DNA of 27,867 bases from positions 1 through 27,867 of the forward strand of contig CAZQEL010000005.1 of NCBI GenBank assembly GCA_964591795.1. Reading direction: 5' to 3'. The translations under genes and the position numbers were made by a program. The stretch comes from an uncultured archaeon. Its GTDB lineage: Archaea; Iainarchaeota; Iainarchaeia; Iainarchaeales; CSSED10-239. The stretch's first letter is position 1; each line of letters opens with the position of its first letter. The notes beneath the pieces are model-generated. The model ran no database searches and was not told the origin of the DNA. It saw only the letters and a list, made by a program, of their open reading frames with translations. Positions 2,081 through 24,079 of the stretch are shown piece after piece.

Positions 2081-2635
2081 ATGTTAAAAAATTATTTTAA
2101 AAAAATAAAAAAAGATCTAAAAAATAAAACTAAAGTTAAGGATTCTTTTTATTTTTTAATTTATTTTTTAATTTCTTTTGTTTCTATTTATTTATTGTTT
2201 TCAAAAACAATTATATATTCTTTTGTAAATTATTTTTATGGTAGTTTTTCAAGTAAATTATTAAATATTGTTTTTAATATTTCATCTTCTTTTTATTATG
2301 ATTTTATAGAAAAAGTAACTTTTTTGGTTTTACCTAGTTTAAATTATCCTGTGGCAATAATTTTTTTATGTACTGGTATTTTAGAGTTTTCATTAATATT
2401 TAGTTCTATTGTTGCAACTATTGGAGTTTCTGTAAGGCAAAAGACTAAATGGGTTTTATTAGCATCTTTAATTGTAATTGTTTTTAATCTTTTAAGAATT
2501 ACTTTTACAATCTTTTTAATTGTATCCTTAAATTTACAAATTGCAAATTTTTTCCACGGATTTTTGTTTAAATTATTTTTAATAGTTATAGTGATAGGAA
2601 CCTATTATTTATTTTTAAAAAATAGTTTTAAATAA
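2081..2635 (+). CDS. Minimal exosortase/archaeosortase-family membrane protein
   Basis: 184-aa polytopic membrane protein. Ordered signature residues are Cys97 in IIFLCTGILE (nt 2369-2371), Arg139 in FNLLRI (nt 2495-2497) and His159 in NFFHGF (nt 2555-2557). This matches the C.G ... N..R ... H core of exosortase/archaeosortase proteins. The gene starts 5 nt after the rps8e stop. Confidence 0.6.
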   Translation: MLKNYFKKIKKDLKNKTKVKDSFYFLIYFLISFVSIYLLFSKTIIYSFVNYFYGSFSSKLLNIVFNISSSFYYDFIEKVTFLVLPSLNYPVAIIFLCTGILEFSLIFSSIVATIGVSVRQKTKWVLLASLIVIVFNLLRITFTIFLIVSLNLQIANFFHGFLFKLFLIVIVIGTYYLFLKNSFK

Positions 2636-2639
2636 TTAT

Positions 2640-2912
2640 TTATTTTCTAGGTCTTTTTCTTAAATGAAATTTACGCTTTGGTTTTTCAATTGTTTTTTTG
2701 TTTTTTAAAGTGATTTGATTTTCAATCTTTTTATTTTTATTTTTTATTTCCATTATTTCATCAAATATAATTTTCATAAATTTTGTATCACCTTTGTTTT
2801 TTCTTATTACATCTTTACAAAATTCAATATTTAAATTATTAAGTTCATTTTTTCTTTTTGCAATTGGTGAACTTGTGTGGTTCCATTTTTCAGATAAATT
2901 TTCATTTGTCAT
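2640..2912 (-). CDS. Hypothetical small basic protein
   Basis: 90-aa ORF with a polybasic C-terminus (KPKRKFHLRKRPRK). Its start overlaps the end of the upstream minus-strand ORF by 11 nt, suggesting translational coupling. I recognise no family. Confidence 0.5.
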   Translation of the reverse strand: MTNENLSEKWNHTSSPIAKRKNELNNLNIEFCKDVIRKNKGDTKFMKIIFDEIMEIKNKNKKIENQITLKNKKTIEKPKRKFHLRKRPRK

Positions 2913-3297
2913 TTTTATCGTCTTTTAACATTTTTTTAACTTGATCTATTGTAGTGTATTCAAGTGGATTAATATTATCTATAATATATTTCATTTCCTT
3001 TAAGTCTTCTTGTCTTGCATATCTTTTTGAAAACATTTCAAGAGTGGATTCTATTCCTTTTATTCTAGAATCAAATTCTTCAACTTTTGCTAGTATTTTA
3101 TCTAGTTTGTCATTTGATGCAAAAGAGCCTTCGCTATCGCTATTATTATTAGATGCAATTTTTTTATTTAAAATAAGTATGTTTCTTCCAAGAATTTTTT
3201 CATTATGAACTAAATATTTAAGTTTTTGTCTTAAAACCAGAATACTTGATTGTAAAGCCTTTATGTCTTGGTAAACATTTTGCCCTTCGTCTGCCAT
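2902..3297 (-). CDS. Hypothetical coiled-coil protein
   Basis: 131-aa ORF with heptad-like helical segments (QDIKALQSSILVLRQKLKYLV; LDKILAKVEEFDSRIKGIESTLEMF) separated by a Ser/Asn linker. It is the first gene of a two-gene minus-strand unit. I recognise no family. Confidence 0.55.
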   Translation of the reverse strand: MADEGQNVYQDIKALQSSILVLRQKLKYLVHNEKILGRNILILNKKIASNNNSDSEGSFASNDKLDKILAKVEEFDSRIKGIESTLEMFSKRYARQEDLKEMKYIIDNINPLEYTTIDQVKKMLKDDKNDK

Positions 3298-3504: not shown

Positions 3505-3870
3505 ATGAATATGAAAATATTTAGTTTTTTAATAGTTATTATGTTTGTTGCTTTAGCATCAACTTTTGTTAGTGCAAACGATAGATTCGATATTACAGAT
3601 ATATCCTATTCATATGTGAGCTATAATCATCCGTATTATCCTAATGTACCTTACTACAATAGTTATAGTAATTACAATAATTATAATTCATATTATAATG
3701 GATATAACGCAGGTTATGTAAGCCCTTATAACGGTTATGTGACTTATCCAGCATATAATAATTATGCAACATCTTATTATCCTACATACAGTTACCCTAG
3801 ATATTCTTACTATAATAATTCAATTAGTTATGTGAGCCCACAAACAAATGTAGTTTTTAGTTGGCAATAG
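3505..3870 (+). CDS. Secreted Tyr/Asn-rich low-complexity protein
   Basis: N-terminal signal peptide (MNMKIFSFLIVIMFVALASTFVSA). The 97-aa mature part has 27 Tyr and 16 Asn, with no Lys, Glu, Leu, Met or Cys. A strong SD precedes it. Confidence 0.7.
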   Translation: MNMKIFSFLIVIMFVALASTFVSANDRFDITDISYSYVSYNHPYYPNVPYYNSYSNYNNYNSYYNGYNAGYVSPYNGYVTYPAYNNYATSYYPTYSYPRYSYYNNSISYVSPQTNVVFSWQ

Positions 3871-3907: not shown

Positions 3908-6900
3908 ATGAACTATAAATACTTTATATTATTTTTTGCAATAATAATTTTTTCGAGTACATTGTTTGCCTATTCGATTGGATTTGATTATGCTGATGTA
4001 AGATCTACATCCTATCCTGTATATATGCCTTATCAGTATGCTGGTGTCTATGATACAATTGATCTTAGATATTCATTATATGGTAATGGATTAACTGCAC
4101 CTGTTAATGTCGTTGTTTCTCCAAAGGTATATGGTATAAATCTATCAGGTCAAAGAATTTTTGTTCATAATGTTCAAACTCAATCTTTTTTAATTCAACC
4201 CTATGGTAATTTTGTCTATTCTTATAATCCTATGTTCTATTTTGATCCTGCCTATCAATCATATGAAGTAGTTTTAGATCTTCAAGCATTAGATGGATCT
4301 TATCAAACAGCTACAAGTTCTTATATTTATTTAAATGGAACTACTGGTGGTAATCAAACTCCTCCAGATCCAACTTTTGAAAATCCAACTTGTGATGATT
4401 TTTATATATCTGGTTTTTCTGATATTTATTTAGATGAAGATTCAAGAGATTTTTATAATCTTTATATAATTAATTCAATTGATGATTCATTAGCAATTAC
4501 TTCAATAACCACAACTCCTATTGATCCTGAAAATTTAGAAATTGAAAATATTACTTATCCATATAATATTTCTTCATACCAAACAAGGAGTGCACAAATT
4601 GATTTATTTACAGATACTGTTTCTTCAAATTATTCAGATAGTTTTGATATTAATGTTAAAGGGAAGTATGGTGATTTAACTTGTGAAAAAAGTTATTCTG
4701 TAAATTATAGAATTAATGATGAGGATTTGCCAAATAATTCTGATTGTGATGATATAAGAATTTCTAATACTTATTTCACATTAAATTCAAACGAAAGTAA
4801 AAATGTATCTGTAAATATTGAAAATGAATCCTTAGATTATTATTTTGATATTGATAGTATTAAATTAAACGAACCTACAAACTCAATTGTAGATGCTTCA
4901 TTAAGAAATAATATTTATTCTATTAATGAAGATTCATCTAAATCTTTAAACTTAAATTTAAATGCAGATGAAACAACTGTTTATAAAACTGAAGATATTG
5001 AACTTAAAATTGATGGTTATTTAAAAAGAACAAATAGAGAAGACAGAAGATGTAGAATAAATGAAACTATTTCCGTTAGAGTGTCTCCAAATTCAAGTAC
5101 CACATCAAACGAATGTAAAGATATTAGTATTTTTTCAAGAAACGTGTCTATTGAAGAAAATACTTTAAAAAATTATTCAAAGACAGATGGTTTTTATTTA
5201 TATAATAATTCTAATAAAAAGTTTATAGTGACTGGTGTTGATTATATTGATAACTCTGGTTATTTGGATGTTTATTCAAAAGCAGTTGATAATTATATTT
5301 TTCCTAAATCATCTGGAAATATTAGTTTTGATTTAAAATCAAAAATAGTTTCTTCAAATATTGATGCTAAAACAAATATAGTTCTAAAAGGTTATTTTGA
5401 AAATGGTGATACTTGTAGTTTTTTAGATATTAAATCAGAATTTAATGTTGGGATTGTAAAGAACGCTGTTTGTTCAAATGTTGGTTTTTTAGATTCTTAT
5501 TTTAAAGATGGAGTAAATTACTTTACAGTGTATAATAATACTCAAAATGATTTTTCAGTAAATGATGTAATTTCTCAACAAAGAAATAATACAACTGTTA
5601 ATGTAATTGATAAATCTTTTGTTATTTTAAATAATTCTCAAAAAACAATTGAGGTAGGTACTTTAAATGAAGGTTCATTTGAACTTCTTTTGAAAGGAAA
5701 ATTTACTAGTGGTGCTTCTTGTGATTATAAGGAAACAACATCTGGTTATTTTACATCTGATAATTATTCTTTTTCAGGATCTGACCCTAGTTGTAATTTT
5801 ACATTTAATTATCCTACAATTAAATATGTTTCATTGGATGGTGATTTTGTAGATATTTCTTTTAAAAATTTAACAAACAAACAAGGAGTTTTAAAGATAA
5901 CTTCCACAGGTACAGTAATTGAAAATCCTTTTATTTATCTTGCACCCTATGAAAACATTTCTCAAAAATTAATTCTTACAAATATAAGTAATCCTAAAAA
6001 TATTATTTATGAAGTAGAAGTATATGGTTGTGCTAAAAAATCATTTGTAACAACTCTTTATCCTTTTATTTCTGTTGACGATCAAAAAATTTATTTTGTA
6101 ACATATCCTACAAGTTTAACTTCTGTAAATAAAAGACTCATTAGTTCTTTTGTTTTGAAAAATACTTCTGAAAATGAAAGTATTGTTGAAATTAAATTTT
6201 CTGGATTTCCAAATAATTTTGTGTTTGTAGCAAATGATTTTATGTTGAATGAAAATTTATTTACAGTTAATGATAATAAAATAAATATTGTACTTAATCC
6301 TTCATCAACCAAAAATATTTATTTTGGAGTTATTGTTCCTGATGATGCTTCAAATATATCTTACAATGGATATATTGATGTTTATAATAAAGGTAAAATT
6401 GTGTTTAATCAACCATTTACAATTAACAGAATTATTTTAAAAGATGAAATTGTTGTTACTAGTAGTTTTGAAAAAATAAATAATAGTAAAAATTCTGTTC
6501 TTTTAAATTTTATGCTTGAAAATAATTCTTCAAATATTAAACATTTATTAATATATTTTGAAGATGAAAATTTATTTACAATTGAAGGAGTTAAATCTAT
6601 AACTTTAGACCCATCTTCTAAGGTATCTCAAAGTTATAAGGTAATTTATGATAATGAACCTTTAATTAAATATAGTGTAATTAATGCGGATACAAATGCT
6701 GTTTTAAAGCAAGGTGAGCTTAATTTAAAAGAAGTTAAAGATAACCCTGGATTTTTAACTGGATTTTTGTCTTTAGCTGGAATTAATTGGGTTTGGGACA
6801 TAATAATAGTTATTATTATAATATGTATTATCTATATTATTTATAATAGTTATAAAATAAAAAAAAGAAAAAAACAAAAAGCTAAATTAAATTTAAAGAA

Positions 6901-7051
6901 AGACATTTTATCAAAAGATGTTGATTTAGAAAATAAAGAGGCGTTTGTTGAAGATAAACTACCTGAATCTAACTTAGTTTCAGAAAATAAAGATGTTTTA
7001 CCTTTAAAAGAAGTTACTTTTGCAGATGTTGATGCTCTTAATAAAAAGTAA
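3908..7051 (+). CDS. Large multi-domain cell-surface protein with C-terminal PGF-TM-polybasic region
   Basis: 1047 aa. It has a signal peptide (MNYKYFILFFAIIIFSSTLFA) and about seven beta-rich modules of roughly 110-120 aa, five of them bracketed by Cys residues. Then come PGF (aa 947-949), a hydrophobic span (950-979), KIKKRKKQK, and a 56-aa charged tail. GAGGT SD at 3893-3897. Confidence 0.85.
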   Translation: MNYKYFILFFAIIIFSSTLFAYSIGFDYADVRSTSYPVYMPYQYAGVYDTIDLRYSLYGNGLTAPVNVVVSPKVYGINLSGQRIFVHNVQTQSFLIQPYGNFVYSYNPMFYFDPAYQSYEVVLDLQALDGSYQTATSSYIYLNGTTGGNQTPPDPTFENPTCDDFYISGFSDIYLDEDSRDFYNLYIINSIDDSLAITSITTTPIDPENLEIENITYPYNISSYQTRSAQIDLFTDTVSSNYSDSFDINVKGKYGDLTCEKSYSVNYRINDEDLPNNSDCDDIRISNTYFTLNSNESKNVSVNIENESLDYYFDIDSIKLNEPTNSIVDASLRNNIYSINEDSSKSLNLNLNADETTVYKTEDIELKIDGYLKRTNREDRRCRINETISVRVSPNSSTTSNECKDISIFSRNVSIEENTLKNYSKTDGFYLYNNSNKKFIVTGVDYIDNSGYLDVYSKAVDNYIFPKSSGNISFDLKSKIVSSNIDAKTNIVLKGYFENGDTCSFLDIKSEFNVGIVKNAVCSNVGFLDSYFKDGVNYFTVYNNTQNDFSVNDVISQQRNNTTVNVIDKSFVILNNSQKTIEVGTLNEGSFELLLKGKFTSGASCDYKETTSGYFTSDNYSFSGSDPSCNFTFNYPTIKYVSLDGDFVDISFKNLTNKQGVLKITSTGTVIENPFIYLAPYENISQKLILTNISNPKNIIYEVEVYGCAKKSFVTTLYPFISVDDQKIYFVTYPTSLTSVNKRLISSFVLKNTSENESIVEIKFSGFPNNFVFVANDFMLNENLFTVNDNKINIVLNPSSTKNIYFGVIVPDDASNISYNGYIDVYNKGKIVFNQPFTINRIILKDEIVVTSSFEKINNSKNSVLLNFMLENNSSNIKHLLIYFEDENLFTIEGVKSITLDPSSKVSQSYKVIYDNEPLIKYSVINADTNAVLKQGELNLKEVKDNPGFLTGFLSLAGINWVWDIIIVIIIICIIYIIYNSYKIKKRKKQKAKLNLKKDILSKDVDLENKEAFVEDKLPESNLVSENKDVLPLKEVTFADVDALNKK

Positions 7052-10531: not shown

Positions 10532-11002
10532 ATGGCAGATAAAAAATATAATTTTCAAAAAAAAGTTGATGAGAAAAAGATTGCAAAATCTTGTAAGAAT
10601 AATGCACCTATTTCAACAAAATATTCTGTTGAATTTTCAAATTACTTTAAAAATAAGCCATTAGTTAAGGCAATTAAAATCTGTGAGGGTGTTATGGATA
10701 AAACAGAATACCTTCCACTTGTTAAATATAATAAAAAAGTAGGACACAGAAAAGGAGACGCGCAAAGAGGAGTTCCTTCTGGAAGATGGCCTATTAAAGC
10801 AGCAAAAACAATTAAAGCTCTTTTACTTGATGTTCAAGCCAATGCTGAAAATTTAAATTTAGATTTAGAAAAATTAAAAATAATCCATATGTTTGCAGTT
10901 AAGGGTGTTACAAGAAGAAAAACACAACCTCTTGGTAGAACTGGCGGAAAACAAAGAGAATCAAAATCCACAAACATTGAAGTAATTGTTCTAGAGGAAT
11001 AA
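10532..11002 (+). CDS. rpl22: 50S ribosomal protein L22
   Basis: Archaeal L22/L17e-like sequence (ISTKYSVEF...GRWPIKAAKTIKALL...) with conserved synteny. Confidence 0.9.
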   Translation: MADKKYNFQKKVDEKKIAKSCKNNAPISTKYSVEFSNYFKNKPLVKAIKICEGVMDKTEYLPLVKYNKKVGHRKGDAQRGVPSGRWPIKAAKTIKALLLDVQANAENLNLDLEKLKIIHMFAVKGVTRRKTQPLGRTGGKQRESKSTNIEVIVLEE

Positions 11003-11005
11003 TAC

Positions 11006-12046
11006 ATGAAAGAAAATTATTTTATTAAAGATAAGCTAAAGAAAATAGCAATTTCAAATTTTTTGAAAAAAAAACTTGCAAGTGCAGGATTTATTGATGT
11101 AGAGGTAGTAAAATCTGTATTTAACACAAGAATTATTATTTATACTTTAAAACCTGGTTTTGTAATCGGGAAAAAAGGTTCAAATATTAGAGCTTTAACT
11201 GATGAACTTGAAAAGAAATTTAATTATTCAAAAGTTCATATTGAAATTGGAGAAATTCCAAATAAAAGTTTAGATCCTAAAGTTATTATGGAAAACATAT
11301 TTTCAAACATCTCAAGAGGTGTTGCATGGAAAAGTGTTGTTTATGGTGCTTTAAGACAAATTAAAGAATCTGGTGCTATTGGTGCTGAAATAATTGCAAA
11401 AGGTAACACTTCTGGAAAAGGTCAAAGAAAAAGAAAATCAAGATTCTTTTTTGGTTATATGAAAAAAGCTGGTGATCAAAAATCACTTGTTGCTATTGAA
11501 AAAAGAACTACCTTTCCAAGTCTTGGAACTATTGGAATTACATTAAGAATTGTAAAACCTGATGTTATATTTTCAGATAAAATTGATGTTTTAGAACTTT
11601 CAAGAATTCATAAATTAAAAATTCAAGAAGAAGAACTTGAAGAAAGACAAGCAGAAGTTGAAAAAGATGCTGATGAAAAAGTAGCTAAAAAAGATATTGT
11701 TGAAAAAGCAGCTAAAAAAGATACTGATGAAAAAGCAGCTAAAAAAGATACTGTTGAAAAAGTAGCTAAAAAAGATACTGATGAAAAAGTAGCTAAAAAA
11801 GATATTGTTGAAAAAATAGCTAAAAAAGATACTGTTGAAAAAATAGCTAAAAAAGATACTGTTGAAAAAGCAGCTAAAAAAGATACTGTTGAAAAAATAG
11901 CTAAAAAAAATGTTGAAGATAAACAAATTAAAGATACTGAAAATAAAACTATTGAATCTACAGAAAAAGAAAAAATTATAACAACTAAAAAAGAAAAAAC
12001 AGAAATTGTAGATAAAAAAGATGTAGTTGACAGTAATAACAAATGA
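11006..12046 (+). CDS. rps3: 30S ribosomal protein S3 with a repeat-containing C-terminal extension
   Basis: KH domain LKPGFVIGKKGSNIRALTDELEKKF and an S3 C-domain. About 140 extra C-terminal residues include nine EK[VAI]AKKD[TI][VD] nonapeptide repeats. Confidence 0.92.
   Translation: MKENYFIKDKLKKIAISNFLKKKLASAGFIDVEVVKSVFNTRIIIYTLKPGFVIGKKGSNIRALTDELEKKFNYSKVHIEIGEIPNKSLDPKVIMENIFSNISRGVAWKSVVYGALRQIKESGAIGAEIIAKGNTSGKGQRKRKSRFFFGYMKKAGDQKSLVAIEKRTTFPSLGTIGITLRIVKPDVIFSDKIDVLELSRIHKLKIQEEELEERQAEVEKDADEKVAKKDIVEKAAKKDTDEKAAKKDTVEKVAKKDTDEKVAKKDIVEKIAKKDTVEKIAKKDTVEKAAKKDTVEKIAKKNVEDKQIKDTENKTIESTEKEKIITTKKEKTEIVDKKDVVDSNNK
11675..11917 (+). repeat. In-frame 27-bp tandem repeat, 9 copies (last degenerate)
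   Basis: GAAAAAGTAGCTAAAAAAGATATTGTT and variants with 1-3 substitutions are exactly contiguous at period 27, inside the rps3 3' region. Confidence 0.95.
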
Positions 12047-12057
12047 TGTGATTTTTT

Positions 12058-12285
12058 ATGGTTAAGAAAAAAAGTATAACTATTAGCAATGTTTCTGAAA
12101 TTGATGATAAGGTTATTAAGTTAAAACTTGAACTTGCAAATTTTAAAGGAATTTTAGCATCAAAAACAAAATCTAACAATACATCTAAGAAAAAAGAACT
12201 TAAAAAAGAGATTGCTAGATATTTAACTAAAAAAAATGATTTTTTAAAAAACGATATTAAAAAAAAATTGGAGAGTAATGTTTAA
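12058..12285 (+). CDS. rpl29: 50S ribosomal protein L29
   Basis: Small helical protein (LKLELANFKG...) in the canonical position after S3. GTGAT SD at 12048-12052. Confidence 0.85.
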   Translation: MVKKKSITISNVSEIDDKVIKLKLELANFKGILASKTKSNNTSKKKELKKEIARYLTKKNDFLKNDIKKKLESNV

Positions 12286-12287
12286 TT

Positions 12288-12590
12288 ATGAAGGATATTA
12301 GTTCTGTAAGTCATCTTTCAAAAGATATTTTTGATTTAAACGAAATTTCAAAAGAATCGCAACAAATAAAAGTGGTTCTTGTAAGAAAAAAATTTCGAAA
12401 ATTTGCAATGAAAATATCTGGATTTGCAGCAATTTTAGAAGCAAAGGAAGTTGGAAAATATTTAAAAAAAAAACTTGCTTGTGGTGGAACAGTTAAAGAT
12501 AAAATAATTGAGATTCAAGGAAATCAGGTTGCTAAAGTAAAAAAATTATTAATTGAAAAAGGTTATCAAGAGGAATTAATTGATGCTTAA
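12288..12590 (+). CDS. Translation initiation factor aSUI1 (eIF1 homolog)
   Basis: IKVVLVRKKFRKFAMKISGF...LKKKLACGGTVKD..IEIQGNQ is SUI1-like. The position between L29 and Rpp29 is canonical in archaea. Confidence 0.88.
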   Translation: MKDISSVSHLSKDIFDLNEISKESQQIKVVLVRKKFRKFAMKISGFAAILEAKEVGKYLKKKLACGGTVKDKIIEIQGNQVAKVKKLLIEKGYQEELIDA

Positions 12591-12774
12591 TTTGAAAGAT
12601 ATCGATAAAATTGGAACCAAAATTTTTATTGAAAATGCATCTGACAAAACCAAATCCAATTTAACAGGACTTGTGGTATTCGAAACAAAAAACATTATTG
12701 TTTTAAAATCTGATAAAAATAAAATTATTAAAATTAAAAAAAATGAAATTTTAAAAACTAAAGAAGTTTTGTGA
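12583..12774 (+). CDS. rnp1: RNase P protein component 1 (Rpp29/Pop4), minimal 63-aa form
   Basis: LTGLVVFETKNIIVLKSDKNKIIKIKKNEI matches the G..G.Vv.ET.N...i......IpK core of Rpp29. The position before S17 is canonical. ATG at 12583 lies 8 nt after AAGAGGA and overlaps the SUI1 stop by 8 nt. Confidence 0.7.
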   Translation: MLNLKDIDKIGTKIFIENASDKTKSNLTGLVVFETKNIIVLKSDKNKIIKIKKNEILKTKEVL

Positions 12775-12780
12775 TTTATT

Positions 12781-13065
12781 ATGCCTGAAAAAAAATTAAG
12801 TATTAGAGGAAAATTAATAGAAGGAAAAGTAGTTAAGATGAAAGCTAAAAAAACAGCTCAAATCGAAATAAAAACTACTAAGTATATTCCAAAGTATGAG
12901 AGATATCTTGTAAATAGAAGTAGATATTCTGTACATGTTCCAGAAGACATCACAATCGCTGTTGGTGATAATGTTTTATGCGGTGAAACAAGAAAAATTA
13001 GTAAAACAAAATCTTTTGTAGTAATGAAAAAAATAAATCCTTCAAAAGATGGTGATTCGAAATGA
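12781..13065 (+). CDS. rps17: 30S ribosomal protein S17
   Basis: GKVVKMKAKKTAQIEI...YIPKYERY...HVPEDI..GD.V..GETRKISKTKSFVV. Confidence 0.92.
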   Translation: MPEKKLSIRGKLIEGKVVKMKAKKTAQIEIKTTKYIPKYERYLVNRSRYSVHVPEDITIAVGDNVLCGETRKISKTKSFVVMKKINPSKDGDSK

Positions 13066-13460
13066 AACAAATTAGTGCAAATCCAGTAAAAGGTCTTGTT
13101 GTTGGTTCTAGATGTAATTGTGCTGACAATAGTGGTGCAAAGATAGTTGAAATAATCTCTGTGTATAAAATTAAAACTAGAAAAAGACAAATTCCTTCAG
13201 CAGGAATTGCTTCATTAGTAAATGTAGTTGTAAAAAAAGGAACTCCAAGTACTAAAAAGAAAATGGAAAAAGCAGTTGTTGTTAGAGTTAGAAAAGAATA
13301 TAGACGAAAAAATGGTTTAAGAATTTGTTTTGAAGACAATGCAGTTGTTTTAACTGATATTAAAGGATTTCCTAAATCTTCAGAAGTAAAAGGTTGTGTT
13401 GCAAAAGAAGTTGGTGAAAGATTTCCAAAAATTGCAGGTCTTGCATCAAGTGTAATTTAA
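13062..13460 (+). CDS. rpl14: 50S ribosomal protein L14
   Basis: CADNSGAKIVEIISV... ATGA start/stop overlap with rps17. Confidence 0.95.
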   Translation: MKQISANPVKGLVVGSRCNCADNSGAKIVEIISVYKIKTRKRQIPSAGIASLVNVVVKKGTPSTKKKMEKAVVVRVRKEYRRKNGLRICFEDNAVVLTDIKGFPKSSEVKGCVAKEVGERFPKIAGLASSVI

Positions 13461-13495
13461 AATTTATCAAAAAAATATTAAAAGTATGATTGTAA

Positions 13496-13870
13496 ATGAA
13501 TAAACAAGTTACTAAAAATCCAGGAAAGCAAAGATTAAAGCTTTATAAAGCTCCAATGCATGTGAAAAGAAAATCACTTGTGTGTCCTTTAAATAAAGCT
13601 CTTCAAAAACAATACGGTGTTAAAAATATTGCAGTAAGAAAAGGTGATATTATTAAAGTAATTGTTGGAGATGATAAAGGAAAAATTGGAAAAATAGAAA
13701 AAGTAGATTATTCTTCATCTAAGGTTTTTGTAAAAGATGTTAAATATAAAAATGTTAGAGGACAAGAAAAGTTAACTCCTCTTGTTACTTCAAATTTATT
13801 ACTTACTGAATTAATTATGACAGATTCAAAAAGAATTATTAAAAAAAAAACACCAAAAAAGGTGAAATAA
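13496..13870 (+). CDS. rpl24: 50S ribosomal protein L24
   Basis: KOW motif VRKGDIIKVIVGDDKGKIGKIEKV. Confidence 0.92.
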   Translation: MNKQVTKNPGKQRLKLYKAPMHVKRKSLVCPLNKALQKQYGVKNIAVRKGDIIKVIVGDDKGKIGKIEKVDYSSSKVFVKDVKYKNVRGQEKLTPLVTSNLLLTELIMTDSKRIIKKKTPKKVK

Positions 13871-14560
13871 ATGGCTAATAAAGGCGAAACTAAATGTTTA
13901 AAAGTAAATAATGCAACTTCAATTAGTGGAGTTACAAAAACAAAAAGATTTGTGTTTAATCCAAAATCAGGTAAACACTCAAAAACTACTTCAATATCTA
14001 TTGGGTATGTTTTAAAACATCTTTTAAATATTTGTGATAACACAAAAGAAGTTAAATATATTATCAATAATAGAGATATCTTAGTTGATAAAAAGATTGT
14101 TAAAAAATATAATTTACCTGTGGGTTTATTCGATGTTATCGAAATTCCTAAAATGGAAAAATATTATATTCTTATTTATGCAACAAACGGTGCATATGTT
14201 TTAGAAGAAATTAATAAACAAGAATCAAATTATAAAGTTTGTAAAATCACTTCAAAAGTAATTACAAAGAAAGGTCAAATACAACTTTCTACAAATGATG
14301 GAAGAGTATTAATTACAGCTAATCAAGCATATAAAACAGGTGCTTCAATAAAATTAGATCTTTTTGAAAATACAATTAAAGAATATTTTCCACTTGAAAA
14401 AGGAAGAGATGTTTTTGTATTTGCAGGAAAACACACTGGTCAAAAAGGAAAAGTTGAAGATATTAAAGCAGGTACTATGAAAAAACCAACTTTAATTCAA
14501 TTAAAATCAAGTGGTATTGATTTTGAAACTGTTGAAAAAAATATAATAGTTATTAATTAA
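13871..14560 (+). CDS. rps4e: 30S ribosomal protein S4e
   Basis: S4e-type N-terminus (KRFVFNPKSGKHSK), S4-like and KOW regions (FAGKHTGQKGKVEDI). GTGAA SD at 13862-13866. Confidence 0.92.
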   Translation: MANKGETKCLKVNNATSISGVTKTKRFVFNPKSGKHSKTTSISIGYVLKHLLNICDNTKEVKYIINNRDILVDKKIVKKYNLPVGLFDVIEIPKMEKYYILIYATNGAYVLEEINKQESNYKVCKITSKVITKKGQIQLSTNDGRVLITANQAYKTGASIKLDLFENTIKEYFPLEKGRDVFVFAGKHTGQKGKVEDIKAGTMKKPTLIQLKSSGIDFETVEKNIIVIN

Positions 14561-14562
14561 AT

Positions 14563-14567
14563 GTGAT
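14563..14567 (+). promoter_or_regulatory. Shine-Dalgarno GTGAT for rpl5
   Basis: The context AAATGTGATATTTATG is nearly identical to the elements before rpl19e (16639-16654) and rps4 (22231-22247). It implies the GTG at 14563 in the ORF track is the SD, not the start. Confidence 0.55.
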
Positions 14568-14571
14568 ATTT

Positions 14572-15102
14572 ATGTCAAGTGAAAAAAACATAAAAGAAAA
14601 TGTAATGAGAGATGTTTTTGTTGAAAAAGTAGTTGTTAATATAGGTGTAGGTGAAGGTGGACCTGAACTTGAAAAAGCAGTTAAGATTATTAAACTTTTA
14701 ACAAATAAACATGCTGTTAAAACTATGTGTAAGGTAAAATTACCCACATGGGGAATTAGACCAGGAATACCTATTGGTTGTAAAACTACTTTAAGAGATC
14801 AAGATGCACTTGATTTTTTAAAATTAACTTTGAAAGCTAAAAGAAACATACTTAAAAAAAAATCTTTTTCAAAAGAAGGTAATTTTTCTTACGGAATACA
14901 TGAATACTTAGATGTTCCAACAATTAAATATGATCCTGATCTTGGGATAAAGGGTTTTGATGTTTGTGTTAATCTTAAAAGAAAAGGTTATAGAGTAAAA
15001 CAAAGAAAACACGATATATCTAAAGTTGGAAAAAATCAAAAAGTTTCAAAAGAAGATGCAATTCAATTTGTACAAGAAAAGTTAAAGGTAGTGGTTGAAT
15101 GA
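14572..15102 (+). CDS. rpl5: 50S ribosomal protein L5
   Basis: VVVNIGVGEGG...PDLGIKGFDVCV. Start moved to ATG 14572, 4 nt after GTGAT. Confidence 0.93.
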   Translation: MSSEKNIKENVMRDVFVEKVVVNIGVGEGGPELEKAVKIIKLLTNKHAVKTMCKVKLPTWGIRPGIPIGCKTTLRDQDALDFLKLTLKAKRNILKKKSFSKEGNFSYGIHEYLDVPTIKYDPDLGIKGFDVCVNLKRKGYRVKQRKHDISKVGKNQKVSKEDAIQFVQEKLKVVVE

Positions 15103-15290
15103 CTACAAATGATAGTAATCCAAAAAAAGTTTTACCAAAATTAAGTAAAACTAGTAAAGAATATAAAAGATCAAAAGCATGTAGAATGTGCGGAACTTAT
15201 AGAGGAGTAATTTCAAAATATAATTTATACATCTGTAGAAGATGTTTTAATGATTTTGCTGACGATTTAGGTTTTAAAAAATATGATTAA
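15099..15290 (+). CDS. rps14: 30S ribosomal protein S14 (zinc-type)
   Basis: CRMCG...CRRCF Cys4 motif. ATGA overlap with rpl5. Confidence 0.92.
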   Translation: MTTNDSNPKKVLPKLSKTSKEYKRSKACRMCGTYRGVISKYNLYICRRCFNDFADDLGFKKYD

Positions 15291-15320
15291 AAAAAAATTT
15301 AGTGCACTTAGGTGAAATCA

Positions 15321-15710
15321 ATGAGTTTAAACGATCCAATTGCAAATGCTTTAAATAATATAAATAATGCAGAAAATGTAGCTAAGAAAATATGTACCCT
15401 TAGTCATTCAAAGCTGATTACAAATATATTGACAGTTTTGAAAGAAGAAGGATATATTAGCAACTATAAAATAGTTGACAAAAGTTTACATAAGAAGCTT
15501 ATTGTATATTTAGATGGAAGAATAAATAAATGTAAAGCTATAAAACCAAGATTTGCTGTAAAGCATGATGAGTTTGAAAAGTTTGAGAAATCTTTCTTAA
15601 TTTCAAGAGATGTAGGTGTCTTAATTGTAAGTACTACAAGCGGACTTATGACTCATAAACTTGCTAAACAAAAAGGCCTTGGTGGAAGACTTCTTGCATA
15701 TATATATTAA
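15321..15710 (+). CDS. rps8: 30S ribosomal protein S8
   Basis: MSLNDPIANALNNINNAE start is typical of S8. Start moved to ATG 15321, 4 nt after GGTGAA (15311-15316). Confidence 0.93.
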   Translation: MSLNDPIANALNNINNAENVAKKICTLSHSKLITNILTVLKEEGYISNYKIVDKSLHKKLIVYLDGRINKCKAIKPRFAVKHDEFEKFEKSFLISRDVGVLIVSTTSGLMTHKLAKQKGLGGRLLAYIY

Positions 15711-15732
15711 GAGAGTATAAAAAGTGATTTTT

Positions 15733-16281
15733 GTGACAAAGAAAATTAAAAACGAAATTAAAGAAAATATTATTGAAGTTCCTAAGGATATAACTTTTAA
15801 GATTGATGATCATAAAGTTATTTTTGAAAAAGGAGATTTAAAACAAGAAGTTCTTTATAATCATGTATATGTTTCTGTAGTACAAAAAGAAAATTCAATT
15901 GTTATTAGACCTAATAACAAAAAGAAAACTTATTTAGCAGTTTCAAACACACTTAGAAAAATAATGAATAATACTATTGAAGGATTTACAAAAGAATTTG
16001 TTTGTAAAATGCAAGTTGTATATTCTCACTTTCCAATTACTACAAAGGTTAATAAAGATAAATTTATTATTACAAACTTTTATGGTGAAAAGAAACCAAG
16101 AGTTGTAAATATTGCTTCAAATGTAAAAATTGAAATTAATGGTAAGGATATTACACTTTCTGGAAGAGATAAACAAGCTGTTGGTCAAACTGCTGGAAAT
16201 ATTGAATCAAAAACTAAACTTAAAGATAAAGATTATAGAGTTTTTGATGATGGAATTTATATTGTAGAAAAATCAAAATAA
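15733..16281 (+). CDS. rpl6: 50S ribosomal protein L6
   Basis: Two-domain L6 pattern and synteny. The start is probably GTG 15733, 4 nt after GTGAT (15724-15728); the track start 15724 coincides with that SD. The start codon remains uncertain. Confidence 0.88.
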   Translation: MTKKIKNEIKENIIEVPKDITFKIDDHKVIFEKGDLKQEVLYNHVYVSVVQKENSIVIRPNNKKKTYLAVSNTLRKIMNNTIEGFTKEFVCKMQVVYSHFPITTKVNKDKFIITNFYGEKKPRVVNIASNVKIEINGKDITLSGRDKQAVGQTAGNIESKTKLKDKDYRVFDDGIYIVEKSK

Positions 16282-16294
16282 TTTTAAATGACTG

Positions 16295-16639
16295 ATGATT
16301 ATGAGTAACGACACACCAAATTTTAGAGCCCATTATGGGTTAACTACTAGAAGAAAGAAAAAAAGAAGAGATGTTCAATCTTGGAGATTTCCTAATGGTA
16401 TTGATAGATCACTTTCTGAAAAAAGAGGTCCAATGCCAAAAATTGGTTATGGTCATAAGAAAGAAGATAAATTTAAACATCCTAGTAATTTTAAAGAAAT
16501 TTTAGTTACTTCAAAAACCGATCTTCTAAACATAATGGAAACAGATATAGCTATAAGATTTAGTAAAACACTTGGTTTAAAGAAAAAAATTGAGCTTACA
16601 GAAATCGCAAAGGAAAAAAATTTAAAAGTTTTAAATTAA
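16295..16639 (+). CDS. rpl32e: 50S ribosomal protein L32e
   Basis: SWRFPNGIDRS...KIGYGHKKEDKFKHPSNFKEILV matches L32e. ATG 16301 is an equally plausible start. Confidence 0.9.
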   Translation: MIMSNDTPNFRAHYGLTTRRKKKRRDVQSWRFPNGIDRSLSEKRGPMPKIGYGHKKEDKFKHPSNFKEILVTSKTDLLNIMETDIAIRFSKTLGLKKKIELTEIAKEKNLKVLN

Positions 16640-16641
16640 AT

Positions 16642-16646
16642 GTGAT
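16642..16646 (+). promoter_or_regulatory. Shine-Dalgarno GTGAT for rpl19e
   Basis: AAATGTGATATTTTATG, 5 nt spacer to ATG 16652. Confidence 0.55.
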
Positions 16647-16651
16647 ATTTT

Positions 16652-17101
16652 ATGAAATTAGATAAACTTAAGGCAATGGCTGGTAAAATTCTTAAAAAAA
16701 GTAAGCATAAACTTATTTTAGATTTAGATAAACTTGAGTCAAATAAAAAAATGATTTCTGATGCTATTACTAAAGATGATGCTAGACAAATAATAGTAGA
16801 TGGTGTTGTTAAAAAGAAAACTAATACAGGCCATTCAAGAGGAAATGCAAGAATCTTACTTGCAAAGAAAAAATTAAAAAGAAAAAGAGGACCTGGTAAA
16901 AGAAAAGGTACTAAGAAAGCAAGAGCAACAAAAAGTGATCATAATTTAAAAGTTAGAGCTTTAAGAAAAAAACTTAGAGAACTTAAAAAAGAAAATAAAC
17001 TTAATGAAAAAAATTATAATAATTTATATCTTAAAATAAAAGGTAATTATTTTAAAGGAAAAAAACATCTTGAAGAATATATTAATGGTGAAAATAAATG
17101 A
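16652..17101 (+). CDS. rpl19e: 50S ribosomal protein L19e
   Basis: GHSRGNARILLAKKKLKRKRGPGKRKGTKKAR is typical of L19e. Confidence 0.92.
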   Translation: MKLDKLKAMAGKILKKSKHKLILDLDKLESNKKMISDAITKDDARQIIVDGVVKKKTNTGHSRGNARILLAKKKLKRKRGPGKRKGTKKARATKSDHNLKVRALRKKLRELKKENKLNEKNYNNLYLKIKGNYFKGKKHLEEYINGENK

Positions 17102-17613
17102 AAATCGGCCCTACCTATAATGTTCCTTTTAGAAGAAAAAGAGAACAAAAAACAGATTATAATAAAAGACTTAAATTTTTAAGATCTTATGAAAAAAGAT
17201 TTATTGTACGTTTATCAAATACTTTAGTTAGAGCACAAGTTGTGGATTATAAACTTGATGGTGATTTATCATTATTGTTTATAACTTCAAAAGAACTTAA
17301 AAAATATGGTTGGATTCATGCTTTAAAAAGTACTCCTGCAATATATTTGACTGGTCTTTTAGCTGGAGTTTTAGCAAAAGAAAAAGGGATTAAAAAAGTA
17401 ATTTTTGATACAGGAGTTAAAAATTTTAAATCAACTTCAAGAATTTTTGCTGCATTAAAAGGAATTGTTGATACTGGTATTGAGTGTCCACATGATTCTA
17501 AGGCTTTCCCTCTTCAAGATAGAATTGAAGGAAAACATATAGAAGCTCATACAAAAAATAATTTAAATAAAAACTTCTTAGAAGTTAAACAAAAAATATT
17601 AGCTAAAAAATGA
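17098..17613 (+). CDS. rpl18: 50S ribosomal protein L18
   Basis: FRRKREQKTDYNKRLKFL start. ATGA overlap with rpl19e. Confidence 0.92.
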   Translation: MKIGPTYNVPFRRKREQKTDYNKRLKFLRSYEKRFIVRLSNTLVRAQVVDYKLDGDLSLLFITSKELKKYGWIHALKSTPAIYLTGLLAGVLAKEKGIKKVIFDTGVKNFKSTSRIFAALKGIVDTGIECPHDSKAFPLQDRIEGKHIEAHTKNNLNKNFLEVKQKILAKK

Positions 17614-17635
17614 TATTTAAACTATGTGATGTTTT

Positions 17636-18334
17636 ATGCCAAGAGAAATTAAAAAAACTGTAGGAAATAAAAAAGAAAAAAGAGGTTCTAGAAGAGCTAG
17701 AACTCCAAGAGAACCTGTTTTTGATAAAGAACTTTGGATACCTAAAACAATTTTAGGAAAAAAAGTTAAAGCTGGAGAAATAACTACTCTTGAAGATGCA
17801 ATTAAATATGGGAATATAATGGAATCATCAATTGTTGATTTTTTACTTCCTGATTTAAAACATAGAATTGTAGATATTAAAAAAACAACTAGAGTTACAA
17901 GGGCTGGAAGACATTTTTCTTTTAGAGTAACTGCAATTGTTGGAGATAGTAATGGACATATTGGTATTGCATTAGCAAAAAATATTGAAAGATTTAATGC
18001 TCAAGAAAAAGCAATTCAAAAAGCAAAACTAAATATGGTTTGTGTAAAAAGAGGTTCAGGTAGTTGGGAAAGTAATACTTATGATGATAATTCAGTACCT
18101 TACAGAATTGTAGGAAAATGTTCTTCTTTAAGAGTTGAATTGTTACCTGCTCCAAAAGGTATTGGTTTAGCAGTAAGTGATTCAATTAAACCAGTTTTAG
18201 AACTTGCTGGAATTACAAACGTATGGTCAAAAACAAGAGGTGCTACTGATACAAAATTAAATTTCGTAAAAGCTACAATAGATGCACTTCATAATTTAAG
18301 TAAACTTAAAACTTTATCTGAAAAAAAAGAATAA
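17636..18334 (+). CDS. rps5: 30S ribosomal protein S5
   Basis: TRVTRAGRHFSFRVTAIVGDSNGHIG and C-terminal domain. GTGAT SD at 17626-17630. Confidence 0.94.
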   Translation: MPREIKKTVGNKKEKRGSRRARTPREPVFDKELWIPKTILGKKVKAGEITTLEDAIKYGNIMESSIVDFLLPDLKHRIVDIKKTTRVTRAGRHFSFRVTAIVGDSNGHIGIALAKNIERFNAQEKAIQKAKLNMVCVKRGSGSWESNTYDDNSVPYRIVGKCSSLRVELLPAPKGIGLAVSDSIKPVLELAGITNVWSKTRGATDTKLNFVKATIDALHNLSKLKTLSEKKE

Positions 18335-18355
18335 ATTTATAAAGATGTGAAAAAT

Positions 18356-18817
18356 ATGTTAATCGTAATATTAAGAATTAGAGGACCTGTTAAAATAAAG
18401 AAGGATATTGAAAAATCAATGTCATTATTAAGACTTACAAGAGCTAATCATTGTGTATTATATACAGATTCAGCTTATCTTAAAGGTTCCCTTAAAAAAA
18501 TGAAAGATTATGTTACTTGGGGTGAAATTTCAGAAGAAATTTTAAGTAAACTTTTATTAAAAAGAGGATATGTTTATTCTGTTGAAAATAAACTTTTAGG
18601 TTTTTCAGAAGTTTTTGAGAAAGATTCAAAAAAAGTAATTTTAGATATTTTTAATGAGAAAAAAACAATTAAAGAATTAAAAGTTAAACCAGTATTTAGA
18701 CTTAAACCACCATCAAAAGGATATGATCGTAAAGGTATTAAAAAAACTTTTGTTGAAGGTGGAGTATTAGGTTATAGAAAAGAAAAAATTAATAATTTAT
18801 TAAAAAGAATGATTTAA
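18356..18817 (+). CDS. rpl30: 50S ribosomal protein L30
   Basis: MLIVILRIRGPVKIKKDIEKSMSLLRL. Start moved to ATG 18356, 4 nt after GTGAA (18347-18351). Confidence 0.92.
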   Translation: MLIVILRIRGPVKIKKDIEKSMSLLRLTRANHCVLYTDSAYLKGSLKKMKDYVTWGEISEEILSKLLLKRGYVYSVENKLLGFSEVFEKDSKKVILDIFNEKKTIKELKVKPVFRLKPPSKGYDRKGIKKTFVEGGVLGYRKEKINNLLKRMI

Positions 18818-18840
18818 ATTTTAAGAAAAAGTGATAGTGT

Positions 18841-19221
18841 ATGCCAAAATCAAAAGTTGATAGACTTAGAGGAAAAAGAACTCATGGAAAAGGGAATACA
18901 AAGAACAACAGAGGTGCTGGTAGTAAAGGCGGTGTTGGAAGAGCTGGTTCTTTTAAACATAAGTTCACAAAATACCAAGTAGTAATTGGTAAAAGAAAAT
19001 TAATTTCACCAAGACTTGGACCTAAAGATAAACCTAAAACAATAACTTTACATGATTTGAATAGTTATCTTTTAAATAAAGATATTATTGATCTTAAAGA
19101 AATTGGATTTCAAAAAATATTAGGTACTGGAAATTTAAATAAAAAAGTTACTATTAAAAATGCACTTGTAACAAAAGTTGCAAGAGAAAAAATTGAGAAG
19201 CTTGGAGGCGTGATTGAATGA
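18841..19221 (+). CDS. rpl15: 50S ribosomal protein L15
   Basis: RLRGKRTHGKGNTKNNRGAGSKGGVGRAG. GTGAT SD at 18831-18835. Confidence 0.92.
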   Translation: MPKSKVDRLRGKRTHGKGNTKNNRGAGSKGGVGRAGSFKHKFTKYQVVIGKRKLISPRLGPKDKPKTITLHDLNSYLLNKDIIDLKEIGFQKILGTGNLNKKVTIKNALVTKVAREKIEKLGGVIE

Positions 19222-23997: not shown

Positions 23998-24079
23998 GCA
24001 GGGGTTCCCGAGTGGTCAAAGGGGCAGGACTTAAGATCCTGTGCTTAGTGCTTCGCAGGTTCGAATCCTGTTCCCTGCA
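23998..24079 (+). tRNA. tRNA-Leu, anticodon UAA
   Basis: Manual cloverleaf. Acceptor GCAGGGG/TCCCTGC with one G-U pair and discriminator A. Anticodon stem CAGGA/TCCTG with loop CTTAAGA (U33, anticodon TAA, G37). A 13-nt variable region (class II). T arm GCAGG-TTCGAAT-CCTGT. No encoded CCA and no intron. Confidence 0.9.

Follow-up and report, generated by a model that had tools for sequence, protein, structure and literature searches.

A conserved juxtamembrane L-T-G-F module beside a minimal archaeosortase-family gene suggests a candidate sorting signal with a cytoplasmic extension in a DPANN archaeon

Archaeosortase-dependent anchoring of surface proteins has been studied almost only in Haloferax, and a 2018 review placed the archaeosortases in a subset of the Euryarchaeota. 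The reaction proposed for ArtA, which acts on PGF-CTERM proteins, passes through a cysteine thioester intermediate that is resolved by archaetidylethanolamine, and the archaeosortase subfamilies each have a motif of their own. In Haloferax volcanii HVO_0405 the tripartite ArtA signal is located centrally and followed by a cytoplasmic domain, and the protein is cleaved into N- and C-terminal fragments. Here we analyse a 27,867-nucleotide stretch of DNA from an uncultured archaeon of the Iainarchaeales (assembly GCA_964591795.1, contig CAZQEL010000005.1, positions 1 to 27,867; hereafter the window), in which the open reading frame (ORF) 3908-7051 encodes a large surface protein and ORF 2081-2635 a member of the exosortase/archaeosortase family. 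The evidence leaves it evenly poised, in our judgement, whether ORF 3908-7051 is a putative surface-layer (S-layer)-type glycoprotein that carries an uncurated archaeosortase signal plus a cytoplasmic extension and is processed by the product of ORF 2081-2635.

A sequence-only reading of the window had drawn attention to the C-terminal part of ORF 3908-7051, where it saw the tripeptide PGF, a transmembrane (TM) helix, the basic cluster KIKKRKKQK and a 56-residue tail, a layout that it likened to a PGF-CTERM signal. The coordinates of all four elements were confirmed, and a composition count of the tail (10 K, 7 D and 6 E, net charge -3) agrees with its description as rich in D, E and K. The features of the protein are as follows (aa, amino acids; pLDDT, predicted local distance difference test).

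3908..7051, + strand: large surface protein of 1047 aa, with signal peptide, string of beta-sandwiches, C-terminal anchor module and tail; family of 186 representatives
6746..6754, + strand: tripeptide P947-G948-F949; only Pro semi-conserved (7/10 orthologs), G and F not conserved
6755..6775, + strand: LTGFLSL, aa 950-956, motif L-[TS]-[GA]-F-[FL]-x-[LF]; conserved, candidate sortase recognition site
6794..6853, + strand: TM core, aa 963-982, from hydropathy and an AlphaFold2 helix at 962-988
6854..6880, + strand: basic cluster KIKKRKKQK, aa 983-991, on the cytoplasmic side by the positive-inside rule
6881..7048, + strand: charged tail of 56 aa, predicted disordered (AlphaFold2 pLDDT <50), clade-specific by tail lengths across the family
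7007..7033, + strand: terminal peptide KEVTFADVD, aa 1034-1042, K-[QE]-[IV]-[TS]-[LF]-x-[ED]-[LV]-[DE]; short predicted helix, conserved

Our alignment of ten orthologous sequences including the window protein (36-55% identity) places the conservation in the seven residues directly behind the PGF. Pairwise identity is 25% over aa 941-949, which include the PGF, 60% over the motif (aa 950-956), 19% over the linker (aa 957-962) and 34% over the TM segment, and the motif stands at 60% between flanks of 19-31%; G952 and F953 are at least 90% conserved. The sequence-only reading had held that orthologs which lack the PGF while keeping the TM helix would speak against cleavage there, and this is what the alignment gives: the tripeptide is absent from 9/9 orthologs, the aligned residues being PNF, PGI, PSF, PSF, SNL, PSI, PSI, HRT and FF, while the helix is kept and L[ST]GFF[ST][LF] persists in the sequences that lack PGF. 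A PGF at this place is rare by composition (about 8e-4 expected by chance in a 10-residue pre-TM window), and it occurs within 25 residues of the TM segment in only 2/70 family members. Because it is found in 0/9 orthologs and in those two members alone, the literal PGF is, on this comparison, a sporadic, lineage-specific accident directly upstream of the conserved LTGF rather than a selected feature. The hydrophobic span of about 30 residues noted earlier does correspond to the hydropathy maximum of the ORF (aa 953-985), yet it consists of two parts, LTGFLSL with a short semi-polar linker (AGINWVWD) and then a TM core about 20 residues long. Between the PGF and the Ile-rich hydrophobic core lie the 13 residues LTGFLSLAGINWV and, after them, W and D.

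The motif extends well beyond the close orthologs. An exhaustive profile search returned 186 representative relatives of the surface protein, and the C-termini were read for 73 members with a TM segment. The loose pattern [TS]-[GA]-[FL]-hydrophobic-x-[LF] was found within 30 residues around the TM start in 70/73 members (96%) as against 2.8% of random ectodomain windows, a contrast that is unaffected by the use of a regular expression for anchoring, although the information content at the anchored motif positions is inflated by it. The distance from motif to TM core is modally 7-8 residues, and a Pro stands 1-6 residues upstream of the motif in 29/70, which is the only part of the PGF with any conservation. 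The C-terminal region thus reads, across the aligned sequences, as a family-wide three-part module composed of (P)-x-hydrophobic-L-[TS]-[GA]-F-[FL]-x-[LF], a TM segment about 7 residues on, and a Lys/Arg cluster. As in generic tripartite signals, the motif has a fixed position before the TM segment and the latter is followed by Lys/Arg; in the window protein the signal does not end the protein. When tail length is counted after the scored TM segment, which often takes in the first basic residues, 0-7 residues follow in 32 of the 73 members (the classic motif-TM-basic-stop layout), 10-35 in 19 and more than 40 in 22.

The tail, whose conservation the sequence-only reading had proposed to check, is kept together with its terminal motif in 9/10 orthologs. 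In the clade of the window protein (P0001-P0008, P0010, P0047 and P0062) the tails have about 45-70 residues, with an identity of about 20% (20.5%) in the middle and of 43.5% in the terminal peptide, and the AlphaFold2 model shows a short terminal helix at aa 1038-1046. Among 1251 ORFs from the window and all fetched loci, the regular expression of the terminal peptide matched solely at the C-termini of these surface proteins. Other clades have conserved tail endings of their own, namely ...ERFWFLK (P0057, P0064, P0070), ...EEPWM.P (P0065, P0071) and ...PPRFMSPPF / RRMHPPFSP (P0058, P0060, P0073), suggesting, as far as the alignments go, a repeated and independent gain of cytoplasmic docking peptides across the surface-protein family. 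From the spread of tail lengths, the poorly conserved middle, the conserved ends and the clade-specific endings, the tail is, at the level of sequence, a real feature under selection that was added secondarily to a more ancient anchor module. Its terminal peptide probably serves to dock a partner in the cytoplasm, either before or after any cleavage.

The second element of the locus, which the earlier reading had not picked up, lies 1.27 kb upstream on the same strand.

2081..2635, + strand: 184-aa polytopic membrane protein of the exosortase/archaeosortase family (TIGR04178), candidate processing enzyme
2369..2371, + strand: C97, invariant, in LCTGILE
2495..2497, + strand: R139, invariant together with N136, in FN..RI
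2555..2557, + strand: H159, invariant, in H..LF

The protein matches TIGR04178 over residues 92-179 (E=4.4e-10, 39.7 bits, cutoff 23), as do 16/16 homologs, and the four residues do not vary across 16 sequences, the most distant at 32% identity. Orthologs are named exosortase/archaeosortase by NCBI and JGI, and some carry PF09721. By analogy with the work on ArtA (Cys-173), C97, the Arg and the His are predicted to be catalytic. At E<=10 the window enzyme lists only the generic TIGR04178 and no named subfamily; weak subfamily matches, given here without their cutoffs, were found among the 16 homologs to ArtD (14/16, best E 2.4e-5), XrtG (13/16) and the pacearchaeosortases (5/16, best E 0.038). 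The AlphaFold2 model (pLDDT 88.9, predicted template-modelling score 0.78) shows a bundle of helices together with a small beta element; Foldseek and sequence searches with the enzyme returned no relative in the PDB. The 27.9-kb window contains this one sortase-family gene, which matches the generic signature and not the ArtA model.

Enzyme and surface protein travel together in a conserved gene order: CGI-121 (minus strand), S8e, the sortase, one or two small minus-strand genes, a small secreted Tyr-rich protein, the big surface protein and then L3 onwards. This order is held in the window and in L002-L006, in L009, L010 and L012, and in 17 further metagenome loci that reach far enough downstream; the related loci come from metagenome-assembled genomes of Candidatus Iainarchaeum, Diapherotrites and Candidatus Forterrea multitransposorum, all DPANN archaea. 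The pairing of sortase and surface protein is same-strand and is kept down to 42% sortase identity and about 25-36% surface-protein identity. The sole exception among loci reaching far enough downstream is L015. In this Forterrea-like contig, within 10684-18910, an insertion of about 8 kb with a 2138-aa protein and two small genes splits the sortase from the block; behind the insertion the 3' part of the sortase gene is present a second time (18650-18910), and then the block resumes.

Compared with ArtA and its PGF-CTERM substrates, the window likewise has a large secreted surface glycoprotein with a short C-terminal motif, a TM helix and a basic cluster, and a genome-encoded membrane enzyme of the exosortase/archaeosortase family with conserved Cys and Arg. 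It differs in that its motif is L-[TS]-[GA]-F-[FL]-x-[LF] and lies about 7 residues before the TM core whereas PGF abuts the helix, in that its enzyme is a minimal form of 184 aa matching the generic TIGR04178 only and its surface protein finds no match in the PGF-CTERM hidden Markov models (HMMs), and in that the host is a DPANN archaeon and the surface protein continues for 56 residues past the basic cluster. HVO_0405 shares with it an internal tripartite signal followed by a cytoplasmic C-terminal part. However, HVO_0405 is a strain-specific fusion to a folded NifU-type domain, a twin-arginine translocation (Tat) substrate with a true PGF, whereas the window protein is a Sec-type substrate with a non-PGF motif and a disordered, charged tail of about 55 residues whose terminal peptide is conserved across its clade. 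The small or dedicated exosortases in NCBIfam (ArtD, XrtG, XrtH, pacearchaeosortase, and heimdallarchaeosortase with Heimdall-CTERM) are, like the window enzyme, short polytopic members of the same superfamily with lineage-specific signals, but the window enzyme lists only the generic signature at E<=10 and the window module matches none of Heimdall-, Loki-, PEF- and PGF-CTERM. The SlaB-type S-layer subunits of the Sulfolobales also combine a signal peptide, an extended beta-rich ectodomain and a single C-terminal TM segment, and offer a model for a plain type I anchor; unlike the window, the Sulfolobales are without an archaeosortase, and no sequence or fold relationship to the window protein was found. 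To our knowledge, SlaB has no conserved pre-TM motif of the LTGF kind.

If the archaeosortase reading holds, the surface protein would be exported through Sec, and on the outer side of the membrane the minimal archaeosortase of ORF 2081-2635 would recognise its L-T-G-F module. There the enzyme's Cys97 would attack the motif or a site close to it, and the ectodomain would be cut from the TM segment and transferred to a lipid or another acceptor, by analogy with the action of ArtA on PGF-CTERM proteins. Because the signal in this clade has gained a cytoplasmic extension, a TM-plus-tail remnant, with about 55 residues on the cytoplasmic side ending in K-[QE]-[IV]-T-[LF]-x-[ED]-L-[DE], would stay in the membrane, as for HVO_0405. 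The sequence-only reading had offered cleavage at the PGF, releasing a membrane-embedded fragment with a cytoplasmic domain, as one of two interpretations. Literal cleavage at PGF and a kinship with PGF-CTERM and ArtA find no support, while the underlying idea of an internal sortase-type signal with a TM-plus-tail remnant gains support because LTGF is conserved family-wide and the archaeosortase-family gene lies close upstream in conserved synteny. Such an arrangement had been taken for a variant not yet described; an internal archaeosortase signal as such is already known, and shown to be cleaved, in HVO_0405.

Two alternatives would keep a sortase but change its type or its target. In one, the C-terminus is a genuine divergent PGF-CTERM signal, cut at P947-G948-F949 by an ArtA orthologue; the tripeptide is present with a TM segment and a basic cluster downstream, and the distant family member P0058 has TPGF where the family motif sits. 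Against this, TIGR04126 (NCBIfam) and PF18204 (Pfam) gave no match at E<=10 on the whole protein, on its last 150 aa or even on a copy truncated after the basic cluster, whereas a synthetic haloarchaeal-type PGF-CTERM control passed with 49.6 bits (cutoff 24.5) and 32.2 bits (cutoff 18.8). A low-GC composition is ruled out as the reason for the failure, since an Ile-rich synthetic PGF-CTERM still scored 30.7 bits against the cutoff of 24.5. The PGF does not abut the helix, the 13 residues that separate it from the hydrophobic core include N and D, and the signal is not at the extreme C-terminus, there being 56 residues after the basic cluster. As all nine orthologs also lack PGF and the nearby sortase matches the generic family signature rather than the ArtA model, we reject PGF-CTERM membership of ORF 3908-7051 on the controlled HMM scans and the lack of conservation, and consider a divergent signal of this kind highly improbable. 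In the other, L-[TS]-G is a degenerate LPXTG-type signal read by a classical (transpeptidase) sortase encoded elsewhere. The layout is similar (motif, short polar linker, TM segment, basic tail) and some family C-termini gave weak LPXTG_anchor matches of 14.5 and 11 bits, but these stay below the cutoff of 15.9 and align with the TM segment and the basic residues, not with the motif. Neither the window nor the fetched loci showed a classical sortase gene, and the enzyme that is encoded nearby belongs to the exosortase/archaeosortase family, so that this explanation too deserves hardly any credence.

A plain, uncleaved type I membrane protein, which was the other interpretation of the sequence-only reading, is a possibility of a different order, one that we take seriously while leaning against it. 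Here the TM segment would be a permanent anchor of the SlaB type, LTGFF a structural stalk or membrane-interface element, and the terminal peptide a tether holding the envelope protein to a partner in the cytoplasm; the sortase encoded nearby would act on other proteins, or its proximity would be inherited synteny. That part of the earlier interpretation which made the PGF coincidental is borne out by the orthologs, but "plain" undersells a region in which LTGF is conserved three residues downstream of the PGF and an archaeosortase-family gene lies nearby. The tail with its terminal motif, conserved in 9/10 orthologs, and the separate conserved endings of several other clades (among them ...ERFWFLK and ...EEPWM.P) suggest that the cytoplasmic end matters while attached, and conservation of a terminal peptide in the cytoplasm is more readily understood for a protein whose TM segment stays joined to its ectodomain. 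The locus, too, can be read this way: the adjacency of sortase and surface protein is part of a larger syntenic block that includes housekeeping genes and may reflect shared ancestry rather than functional coupling, and the distant family members L007 and L013, which lie upstream of the L3 operon, have no adjacent sortase in the DNA visible. These points weigh against an archaeosortase signal, as do two further results. None of the curated models (PGF-, PEF-, Heimdall-, Loki-CTERM, LPXTG) matched nine family C-termini at cutoff, and a scan of 949 ORFs, each 100 aa or longer, from the flanking DNA of the fetched loci turned up no convincing second motif-TM-basic protein, so that the modularity that sorting signals usually show can only be presumed here; a profile of the 48-residue module, a query too short for the size of the database, gave only two insignificant matches (E about 3-5) when 5.8 billion proteins were searched for unrelated carriers. 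A permanent anchor, on the other hand, sits poorly with the juxtamembrane stretch being the best conserved part of the C-terminal region, which is unusual for simple anchors, in a family in which divergence of the ectodomains has reached E about 1e-10; with the exact motif-TM-basic-stop layout of sortase signals in 32/73 members; and with a sortase gene kept alongside, its Cys, Arg and His intact, in very small genomes. The 60% identity in the motif, its presence in 70/73 members, the tripartite layout in 32/73, the TIGR04178 match, the co-location, the large proteins with a TM segment and basic cluster that adjoin more distant sortase homologs (L052, L059) and the precedent of HVO_0405 together bring archaeosortase processing to about an even chance.

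A bolder version of the archaeosortase reading, which we regard as unlikely, is that a signal of the L-T-G-F type has repeatedly been extended by cytoplasmic tails with clade-specific docking peptides (...KQITLxELD, ...ERFWFLK, ...EEPWMxP). Export and processing of the surface protein would then be coupled to a cytoplasmic machine, for example at the division site, which is where new S-layer is inserted in Haloferax, and cleavage would leave a small TM-tail protein with a role of its own. The Haloferax S-layer glycoprotein is recruited to midcell before secretion, which may hint, speculatively and by analogy, at one role for the tail.

The remainder of ORF 3908-7051 is consistent with a surface location. 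Its N-terminus (aa 1-22) is hydrophobic and signal-peptide-like, 31 N-X-S/T sequons fall in the ectodomain and 0 in the tail, and the topology is N-out with one TM segment and C-in. The AlphaFold2 model (pLDDT 69) consists of all-beta domains; a Pfam scan of the ORF found no family, its sequence profile found no related entry in the PDB, and the PDB matches of the model in Foldseek were all generic, namely strings of Ig-like or macroglobulin-type domains at template-modelling scores of about 0.1. Ten Cys within aa 162-708 (162, 259, 280, 382, 403, 503, 522, 605, 629 and 708) are regularly spaced, stand at domain boundaries and are all invariant in the 10 orthologs, a pattern suggestive of disulfides that staple one beta-sandwich domain to the next. 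The position beside the ribosomal-protein operon is kept for the surface protein even in distant lineages. Because of its signal peptide, size, sequon density, single C-terminal anchor and conserved site beside this operon, the protein is probably an S-layer-type glycoprotein.

The window itself is archaeal DNA of about 25% GC with CGI-121, S8e and, downstream, the L3-L4-L23-L2-S19-L22-S3...SecY operon. Two further genes lie between the enzyme and the surface protein:

3505..3870, + strand: secreted Tyr/Asn/Ser-rich protein of 121 aa, ending ...VVFSWQ; directly upstream of the surface protein in syntenic loci
2902..3297, - strand: 131-aa coiled-coil protein, between sortase and surface protein in syntenic loci

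Homologs of the former conserve the ending ...SFSWQ / ...FSWMR, and it may be a second envelope component or envelope partner. The coiled-coil protein is 59-80% identical across loci, above both the sortase and the surface protein, and matches no Pfam or NCBIfam family. A tRNA-Leu gene (anticodon TAA) lies at 23998-24079 (+) within the ribosomal-protein gene region. The scan for promoters and terminators used bacterial consensus sequences and is uninformative in AT-rich archaeal DNA.

Distant sortase homologs elsewhere belong to other surface-structure loci. In L052 (10615-15657) and L059 (18-2420) large proteins directly adjoin such homologs and end in a TM segment and basic cluster (...IGIILIILVALAAAVQGIIIIRKGQ and ...NISSIIIVLLIVISVLFLNKKERRID, respectively) without L-T-G-F; they may be other sortase-substrate pairs with signals of their own. 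In L049 and L051-L067 (e.g. L060 7208-19696) distant homologs with 26-41% identity sit in a different conserved locus, where they are divergent from a protein of about 770 aa starting MKIGGFKVGDFVVKD, often with a membrane protein of about 800 aa nearby and, downstream, a giant protein of about 3000 aa starting LISEKLAG.YTK.EDKYFD.

Our literature search found, in the library covered, no paper tying archaeosortases to Diapherotrites/Iainarchaeia or describing an L-T-G-F motif. What appears to be novel is the combination of a sortase-type tripartite module with an uncurated motif, placed beside an unclassified minimal archaeosortase in a DPANN archaeon and carrying clade-specific cytoplasmic extensions, with processing as a prediction. 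If the surface protein is instead a permanent type I protein, it would be a surface protein of an ordinary kind, anchored by its TM segment, whose stalk motif is conserved. If the pairing with the enzyme is true, it would constitute a new signal-enzyme pair in DPANN archaea, the L-T-G-F module would be a sequence handle for finding the main envelope proteins of these organisms, and the family would provide natural substrates that leave a C-terminal remnant of detectable length, the property that made HVO_0405 useful. The conserved tail peptides point to a candidate physical link between the envelope protein and cytoplasmic components, and, should the extended signals indeed serve for docking, they would represent a novel connection between envelope assembly and the cell interior in archaea whose genomes are minimal.

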